A stretch of DNA of 64,000 nt from the IMG/VR virus record IMGVR_UViG_2541047857_000009; one strand, given 5' to 3'. This stretch comes from a virus (taxonomy: Duplodnaviria; Heunggongvirae; Uroviricota; Caudoviricetes). The notes below the pieces were generated by a model, which had not been told where the DNA came from, ran no database searches, and saw nothing but the letters and a program-made list of their open reading frames with translations. A program made the translations under genes and the position numbers. Every line of letters starts with the position of its first letter. Position 1 is the stretch's first letter. Positions 34,922-35,645 of this stretch are shown in pieces.

Positions 34922-35237
34922 TTTTTAATAATTGGTAATTACGTGCTTAAGGTTCCAAAAGATTCCAGTTATTCACTGGGGCTGTAAGATTTTAACATCA
35001 ATGCTTGATGGTTGACACACTGAATGCAGTTTAATATTTAATAACAACAAAATAATAACCAACTGTAATTAGCATGCTATAAATAACGTTGAAGATTACA
35101 TCTCATGCTTCTATATCGCAGTAAAGTCAACATAGATTAACTTCTGCTTTTCCATCCACAACTTTATCTCAAGCTACAACAACAAGTTGCATGCTAACTA
35201 TTTCACGGTACTTGATGTGCGCTCTGTAAGAGTAGTA

Positions 35238-35253
35238 CTGTATGTATAAACAG
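35238..35253. promoter_or_regulatory. LexA (SOS) box upstream of umuD'
   Basis: CTGTATGTATAAACAG matches CTGT-N8-ACAG, embedded in TACTGTATGTATAAACAGTA. Confidence 0.8.
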
Positions 35254-35273
35254 TATTTATGGGAGTGCAAATC

Positions 35274-35645
35274 ATGGAGTCCCAATTCCCCGCAGCAGAT
35301 TATGCAGTAGAGCGTATCTCACTGGACGGCAGGATCATTACAAGCCCAGCGTCGACATATTTGATGCTGGCAGCAGAGACTATCTGGCGCGCAGGCATTA
35401 TGAAAGATGCAATGCTTGTCGTGGACAGCGCTGTACATCCCATTGATGGTTCTATTATCGTATGCCAGTTCAACGGTGAACTTCGTCTTAAGCGCTTGAG
35501 GTTAGCTCCTGCTCGATGCCTTGAAGATCTTAACTATCCAGACCGGCATCAGATGCTGACGTCTGAAACTCTCATTATGGGAGTTGTGACATATATCATC
35601 AACGATGCCCGTAGTGGTGAGTTTGACGACAGCCCGGTGATCTGA
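35274..35645 (+). CDS. umuD: UmuD'-like protein lacking the N-terminal cleavable arm (Pol V accessory subunit)
   Basis: [11 protein letters not shown] aligns to the UmuD region just after the Cys-Gly cleavage site; catalytic Ser position is Thr; GGGAG SD before ATG 35274. Confidence 0.7.

Follow-up and report, generated by a model that had tools for sequence, protein, structure and literature searches.

What is the role of a UmuD homologue that is apparently made without the part that UmuD has to cut off, and without the residue that does the cutting? The question is raised by a locus in a 64,000-nucleotide (nt) stretch of viral DNA (IMG/VR record IMGVR_UViG_2541047857_000009, Caudoviricetes), which we refer to at its full length as the window. 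An initial annotation placed at 35236-35645 an SOS-controlled umuD homologue that is ‘born processed’ and carries Thr at the catalytic Ser position; it may encode a constitutively UmuD'-like subunit, so that mutagenic bypass would be controlled only by LexA. In our judgement the locus is probably an accessory (‘moron’) cassette of a prophage, under LexA repression, whose genes encode a translesion polymerase of the Pol V type that is self-contained. What makes the gene so striking—the processed start, the Thr in place of Ser and the SOS box—is characteristic of a whole family, known ever since HumD of phage P1, and no new biology is required to account for them.

A UmuD homologue without the cleavable arm

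Does the gene really begin where a processed UmuD' would begin? The LexA (SOS) box upstream of it, TACTGTATGTATAAACAGTA, occupies 35236-35255 and also marks the left border of a mobile cassette. It agrees with the SOS-box pattern TACTGTATNNATNNACAGTA at every position, against a chance expectation of 0.01 matches, and the arrangement CTGT-N8-ACAG occurs just once in the 64 kb, in this same box. The open reading frame (ORF) spans 35259-35645 from its first ATG and 35274-35645 from its second, with the TGA stop at 35643-35645. The second ATG lies 18 nt from the box and is preceded at 8 nt by a Shine-Dalgarno sequence, GGGAG (35261-35265, + strand), and it is also the start chosen by PGAP, which gives the 123-residue form in Escherichia coli NZ_CP147044, 99.9% identical over this part of the window. 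The annotation of E. coli 20A24 was applied to positions 35100-37000 only; elsewhere that genome does not match the window: a theta gene, for example, is missing where it would be expected, and ompW is followed by a second prophage. The box and the start had both been placed correctly in the initial annotation. The alternative ATG at 35259 adds no more than MGVQI, because an in-frame TAA within the LexA box itself (35247-35249, + strand, evident from the codon list and the ORF limits) caps any extension at these five residues. No cleavable N-terminal arm is therefore possible, and nothing resembling a UmuD arm is found in the upstream frames of the gene.

The predicted product of this humD-type gene (35274-35645, + strand), a UmuD'-like accessory subunit of 123 residues, has as its closest relative by sequence in the PDB the UmuD' structure 1UMU (HMMER, E 2.9e-12), with UmuD also among the best. 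The alignment confirms the arm-less start: FPAADY pairs with SPAADY of UmuD', directly past the Cys24-Gly25 cleavage site, and the initial Met falls on the column of UmuD Cys24, MAFFT being concordant with HMMER. What is left of the N-terminal arm, equivalent to residues 25-40 of UmuD' (35274-35324, + strand), has its first five residues diverged from the MGFPSPAADY of the family. Both alignments place Thr36 (codon ACT, 35379-35381, + strand) on the Ser60 nucleophile and Lys73 (codon AAG, 35490-35492, + strand) on the general base Lys97, as had been read from the sequence at first, and both open a one-residue deletion at Gly58. The Pfam model Peptidase_S24 (PF00717) is passed marginally, with 25.3 bits against a threshold of 23.3, and a protein without the Ser nucleophile and without Gly58 would not be counted among the active S24 peptidases. 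The fold is nonetheless recognizable. In an AlphaFold2 (AF2) model, for which P1 HumD was left out of the input alignment, core residues 30-110 have a per-residue confidence (pLDDT) of ~90, residues 1-17 fall below 50 and the last nine are of low confidence; the top PDB folds in Foldseek are UmuD' (1UMU, prob 1.00, template-modelling score about 0.6-0.7), followed by the C-terminal domains of LexA.

Are these properties peculiar to the window gene? By its sequence the protein is of a known kind, belonging to the already described HumD family. It scores 151.4 bits with the NCBIfam model NF051876, ‘HumD family translesion DNA polymerase’ (cut-off 120, E 1.2e-44, profile positions 6-129 of 129), and 65.7 bits with the UmuD model NF007621, under its cut-off of 110, with which the UmuD of the E. 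coli D9 prophage reaches 162.3; homologues already carry the name of the HumD family in public sources. P1 HumD is the type member, and a note in its GenBank record states that it complements E. coli UmuD' functionally. Among 114 cluster representatives, retrieved as close relatives by a search with the window protein, the Cys24 column holds Met in 110 and the Gly25 column Gly in 106, Gly58 is deleted in all, the nucleophile column holds Thr in 97 and Ser in nine, and the Lys97 column holds Lys in 87, Met in 15 and Arg in seven. A LexA-like box precedes the gene at each of the 34 HumD-family loci examined, mostly 13-22 nt from the start codon. This tally and the recurrence of the box make the processed start, the Thr-for-Ser replacement and the SOS control traits of the whole HumD family. 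The initial idea of a UmuD'-like subunit stands, then, in part: the encoded subunit lacks the cleavable arm and the Ser, and its gene lies behind a LexA box and is coupled to umuC. What had been overlooked is the family, in which Thr is the norm rather than an oddity.

One might still suspect a functionless remnant, that is, a 5'-truncated and catalytically dead umuD pseudogene left behind by recombination at the prophage end. Loss of the nucleophile, mosaic joints lying exactly at gene borders and the S24 score barely above the Pfam threshold are compatible with such an origin, but the gene does not evolve like a relic: at a synonymous divergence of 0.87 from the Citrobacter homologue, its ratio of non-synonymous to synonymous divergence (dN/dS) is 0.16, and it is under purifying selection. 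Furthermore, the same architecture, with start, box and tail intact, recurs in the 114 representatives, the curated equivalog model is passed, translational coupling to umuC is retained in four independent contexts, and the P1 homologue is on record as functional. We regard decay of this kind as extremely improbable. Sequencing error is excluded as well, since identical or near-identical genes exist in two complete E. coli genomes and the 114 representatives are built alike.

What, then, has become of the catalytic dyad? When 1.84 billion cluster representatives were searched exhaustively with HMMER, 847 relatives were returned; of the best 150, those with a single domain were classified. Those with at least 15 residues before the Gly25 column were taken as arm-bearing (n = 48); the arm-less ones (n = 41) mostly begin with Met-Gly. 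Arm-bearing relatives combine Ser with Lys in 43 cases, Thr with Lys in one and other residues in four, and their cleavage dipeptide is Ala-Gly in 37 and Cys-Gly in two. Arm-less relatives have Ser/Lys in three cases and Thr/Lys in six, while the other 32 admit almost any residue (Ala, Asp, Gly, His, Asn, Gln, Arg, Tyr; Met, Val, Cys, Arg). In this set of sequences the S24 dyad decays after loss of the arm, which is the pattern predicted by relaxed selection on catalysis. The comparison has the character of a natural experiment, in which the dyad is kept only while an arm exists to be cut, and this difference between the two groups speaks against Thr36 as a working nucleophile, even though the 85% conservation of Thr in close enterobacterial relatives is unaccounted for.

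That conservation, together with the Lys present in 87 of the 114, could also be taken to mean that Thr36 and Lys73 are still catalytic and that the protein, instead of being a passive polymerase subunit, works in trans as an S24-type protease. Its substrates might then be, for instance, the host UmuD, LexA or the cI-like repressor of its own prophage (83-781), which is itself an S24 protein. Intermolecular cleavage of UmuD is, after all, known. This activity seems highly improbable to us, as only nine of the 41 arm-less relatives carry either Ser/Lys or Thr/Lys, every member of the close group has lost the Gly of the GDSM motif, and S24 enzymes that use Thr as their nucleophile are not known to us.

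A separate observation from the same search concerns proteins of ~245-280 residues (P0126, P0141, P0162, P0171, P0174, P0178 and others), each of which contains two UmuD-like stretches. They may represent single-chain tandem dimers of the UmuD' type.

The humD-umuC cassette and its control

What partner would such a subunit serve? The ATG of umuC (35645-36913, + strand) overlaps the stop codon of humD (TGATG). The encoded Y-family polymerase of 422 residues scores 854.7 bits with the UmuC model NF002955 (cut-off 431), covering residues 1-422 of 422; it contains the Pfam domains IMS, IMS_C and DUF4113 (the last with 82 bits at residues 371-421), and the catalytic Asp/Glu motifs VDVNSFY and YSIDEAF are present. 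Its dN/dS is 0.03 relative to the Citrobacter homologue; in the comparison with D9 the synonymous sites are saturated and give no value. Convergent with umuC, and sharing an 8-nt overlap with its 3' end, is a YedK-like SRAP gene (36906-37577, - strand; PF02586, 171 bits), for which no LexA box of its own was found. A connection of UmuC-like polymerases to SRAP-related proteins has been described in a 2026 survey (PMC12926913).

The LexA box, humD, umuC and the SRAP gene make up a 2.4-kb cassette (35236-37641) at the right end of the prophage, adjoining yciB. Its limits are defined by DNA comparisons. Homology to a metagenome contig (L052) extends from 35236, the first base of the box, to 37641, and DNA homology to two prophages of Citrobacter amalonaticus (L004 and L005) from 35292 to 37613. 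The SRAP gene is co-linear with humD-umuC in all three, and in the metagenome contig it stands at the chromosomal position of yedK, beside yedF, yedE, yedD and amyA. Within this subclade humD is coupled to umuC in all four contexts examined (E. coli, the C. amalonaticus prophages and the metagenome contig), and in a neighbour-joining tree with UmuD as the root the coupled form is a single clade. The full cassette is matched in only 2 of 5426 complete E. coli genomes. A megablast search of positions 35100-37000 against phage records gave no match, so that the informative searches were those at the protein level, and we found no published description of a humD-umuC operon in the literature searched.

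In one of the C. amalonaticus prophages (L004, 5921-6001) dinI is divergent from humD across an 80-nt spacer, which holds two LexA boxes with one mismatch each, TACTGGTTGGATATACAGTA and TACTGTTTTTATATCCAGTG. The double-box arrangement is seen again in Kluyvera and Pseudocitrobacter, there upstream of humD genes that stand alone.

Elsewhere humD stands alone. An adjacent umuC is absent from all 37 HumD-related loci of species-representative genomes, and solo genes are also found in P1, in a P22-like E. coli prophage (P0023) and in Cronobacter (P0014). The solo state is the norm for HumD, and the pairing with umuC is the less usual feature of the window locus. The solo and coupled forms also differ in the protein itself: the N-terminus reads MGFPSPAADY in 71 solo HumDs, with nine more differing at the last residue only, while those of the coupled clade have drifted (MESQFP, MGFHIP, MYFPSP). 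The N-terminal arm is reported to be inserted into UmuC (PMC12926913), and the drift fits an arm that would now have only its own UmuC to match.

The abundance of solo genes suggests a further possibility, namely that the protein does not serve the adjacent UmuC but mainly modulates host Pol V or replication, either as a partner of the UmuC or UmuD of the host or by means of its C-terminal tail. The HumDs of the 37 loci and of P1 must indeed use host partners, and conservation is higher in the tail than in the core. However, the window humD shares an overlap with its own umuC and moves together with it, and its arm has moved away from the MGFPSPAADY shared with host UmuD', as expected if a fit to host UmuC is not needed. 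For the window gene we find modulation of the host very unlikely.

How would the cassette operate as a polymerase of its own? The sequence, family membership, fold, box, coupling, purifying selection and cassette limits are directly established, and from them we infer its assembly, activity and regulatory consequences. LexA would repress humD-umuC and, upon SOS induction, leave the box, allowing both subunits to be made. HumD, being translated from the Gly25 position, would neither need RecA-stimulated self-cleavage nor be capable of it, and its Thr-Lys pair is probably a vestige of the former Ser-Lys dyad. With umuC coupled to the translation of humD through the TGATG overlap, the two products are expected to assemble as (HumD)2-UmuC. 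The slow conversion of UmuD into UmuD' would be skipped as a checkpoint, probably along with the proteolytic control that depends on the UmuD arm, and RecA would still be necessary for activation of the polymerase.

This last step is where we part with the initial annotation, according to which LexA alone would gate mutagenic bypass once the subunit is born processed. The joint absence of the arm and of the Ser nucleophile, and the presence of a single strong LexA box, agree with that proposal. A change in the small subunit, however, would leave unaffected the proteolysis of UmuC by Lon or by other means. Canonical Pol V is moreover nearly inactive until it receives RecA-ATP by transfer from a RecA filament's 3' end (PMC6511836, PMC12926913), and the cassette UmuC retains DUF4113, a RecA-NT-like motif proposed as a RecA binder. 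The claim of exclusive LexA control overreaches because the polymerase of the cassette keeps this motif and Pol V requires RecA-ATP (PMC6511836). Gating by LexA alone is thus unlikely; the UmuD-cleavage checkpoint is the only control that is bypassed.

Several points weigh against a self-contained polymerase as well. Expression of humD-umuC, its proteins and their activity are predictions, and compatibility between HumD and UmuC is assumed; the MESQF start departs from the MGFPS common to most HumDs and to UmuD'. The function of P1 HumD is taken from the GenBank note and from secondary citations rather than from the original paper. Conservation of Thr at 85% and of Lys at 76% in close relatives exceeds what pure neglect would leave. 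Finally, a promoter scan of the + strand at the box yielded no sigma-70 match at threshold, and the candidate picked by eye, TTGATG-18-TACTGT, is weak. With these points considered, we still favor the self-contained polymerase. It would mean that a HumD-type subunit can be tied firmly to a UmuC of its own, the two moving among prophages of E. coli and Citrobacter as part of a 2.4-kb cassette. A lysogen would gain a translesion polymerase that runs without the timer of UmuD cleavage, and its stress-induced mutagenesis could increase.

The C-terminal tail and the prophage surroundings

Is a HumD simply a UmuD' that dispenses with cleavage? The C-terminal tail (residues 108-123; 35598-35642, + strand) suggests that there may be more to it. 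The tail is absent from UmuD and is modelled by AF2 with low confidence, and yet it is the most conserved stretch of the family, with N110, D111, A112, R113, E116, D118 and D119 invariant. An acidic-aromatic motif in it is present in 102 of the 114 close relatives and in 14 of the 41 arm-less representatives, and in none of the 48 arm-bearing ones. The tip reads GEFDDxPV[IM], and distant members (among P0116-P0201) end in NEFDDIAPF, GEFDDTPF or EFHDNLPF. Some of these resemble the C-terminal tip of SSB, DFDDDIPF, by which SSB recruits its partner proteins (PMC10018359), though this is a resemblance only. It is conceivable, if rather doubtful, that the HumD lineage is more than an arm-less UmuD', having acquired this acidic-hydrophobic tip once the arm was lost and the dyad left to decay, and that its tail acts as a mimic of the SSB tip or as a docking peptide, replacing the cleavage checkpoint by recruitment to, or competition at, SSB-coated gaps. 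Under such a scheme the humD-umuC cassette would give prophages a self-sufficient mutagenic polymerase, independent of UmuD cleavage.

The host element of the cassette is a lambdoid prophage spanning approximately 1-37600 of the window, ending beside yciB and including portal and tail genes. A tRNA-Thr gene (TGT, 9202-9276) is located in its late-regulatory region. Just upstream of the SOS cassette are a tailspike gene (31217-33799), whose product of 860 residues combines an N-terminal TSP1/Gp66 domain with a GDSL esterase domain, and a divergent Acyl_transf_3 gene encoding an acyltransferase (33836-34921). The two are probably a seroconversion pair of an O-antigen deacetylase and an O-antigen acetylase. 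Acyltransferase or GtrA-type genes occupy the same place in several humD or humD-umuC loci.

A second prophage begins directly past ompW and fills 40201-64000, so that yciB, yciC and ompW are flanked by two prophages. It carries genes for a lambda-type integrase (40201-41331, - strand), a protein of 823 residues with an Rv2179c-like exonuclease domain (41622-44093, - strand), a DNA methylase (55159-56208) and a gpA terminase (62058-63566), as well as a cluster of tRNA genes for Met, Arg and Arg (56258-56507).

Comparison with known mutagenesis systems

How does the cassette compare with systems already described? UmuD/UmuD' of E. coli (1UMU, 1AY9, 1I4V) shares with the window protein the fold, ~30% identity in the core, the PAADY motif and the equivalent of Lys97, and E. 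coli umuD likewise belongs to a LexA-controlled operon with umuC. The window protein differs from it in lacking residues 1-24 and the Cys24-Gly25 site, in having Thr for Ser60 and a GDSM region shorter by one residue, and in gaining a 10-residue acidic extension at the C-terminus.

The likeness to P1 HumD is closer. The two belong to the same family, NF051876, and are 49% identical; both start at the Gly25 position, have no arm, lack Gly58 and possess the C-terminal tail. The LexA site of P1 humD is recorded in GenBank 19-20 nt upstream of the coding sequence, similar to the 18 nt of the window gene. HumD of P1 is reported to form dimers, to bind both UmuC and RecA filaments and to be without a cognate umuC. 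It has been described as an already activated UmuD (PMC7092418). P1 HumD retains Ser (AADSHH), whereas the window protein has Thr; its N-terminus is MGFPSP, against MESQFP in the window; and P1 humD stands alone, followed by phd-doc, whereas the window gene overlaps a umuC of its own.

The small subunits of MucAB, RumAB, ImpAB and SamAB, the Pol V homologues of plasmids and ICEs, require cleavage (MucA to MucA', RumA to RumA'), unlike the window protein. In other respects these four systems are comparable to the cassette, being LexA-regulated mobile operons that combine a small S24 subunit with a Y-family polymerase (PMC7092418, PMC8460599). A precedent for an accessory that does without proteolytic activation is provided by YqjX/YolD, the small partners of the Gram-positive polymerases YqjW/UvrX, which also consist of an N-terminal arm and a beta-barrel core (PMC6511836, PMC12926913). 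They are unrelated to the window protein by sequence and are predicted to be monomeric.

A third, mini type of accessory, of ~100 residues, was encountered in the E. coli D9 prophage (L002, 5077-5385) and in Enterobacter phage CobraSix (L057, 1196-1501). The D9 gene has a LexA box of its own and lies upstream of umuD; the CobraSix gene replaces umuD and overlaps the start of umuC. The two proteins are homologous to each other (E 7e-16), have no NCBIfam match, and share with HumD only the last strand and the acidic tail (...DDNPVM and ...DENPFM). The 102-residue ORF of D9 was considered as a possible HumD fragment and rejected: hhalign against the HumD profile gave a probability of 1.2%, no NCBIfam model is matched, and the ORF is homologous to the CobraSix protein.

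UmuC of the phages PHB10, Oslo, ST846-OXA48phi9.2 and ENT39118 is 76-87% identical to that of the window, and where umuD was checked (D9, PHB10 and ST846-OXA48phi9.2) it is full-length, with 139-160 residues, unlike the window gene. The umuDC operon of the E. coli D9/D4 prophages occupies the same chromosomal site as the cassette, the right end of a prophage beside yciB, and D9 is 83% identical to the window in UmuC and 92% in the SRAP protein. Its umuD encodes an ordinary protein of 139 residues with the Cys-Gly site, GDSM and KRLQL intact, whereas the window humD is without the arm. DNA homology between D9 and the window starts exactly at the ATG of umuC (35645), and for this reason humD and umuD can be regarded as exchangeable heads of one operon.

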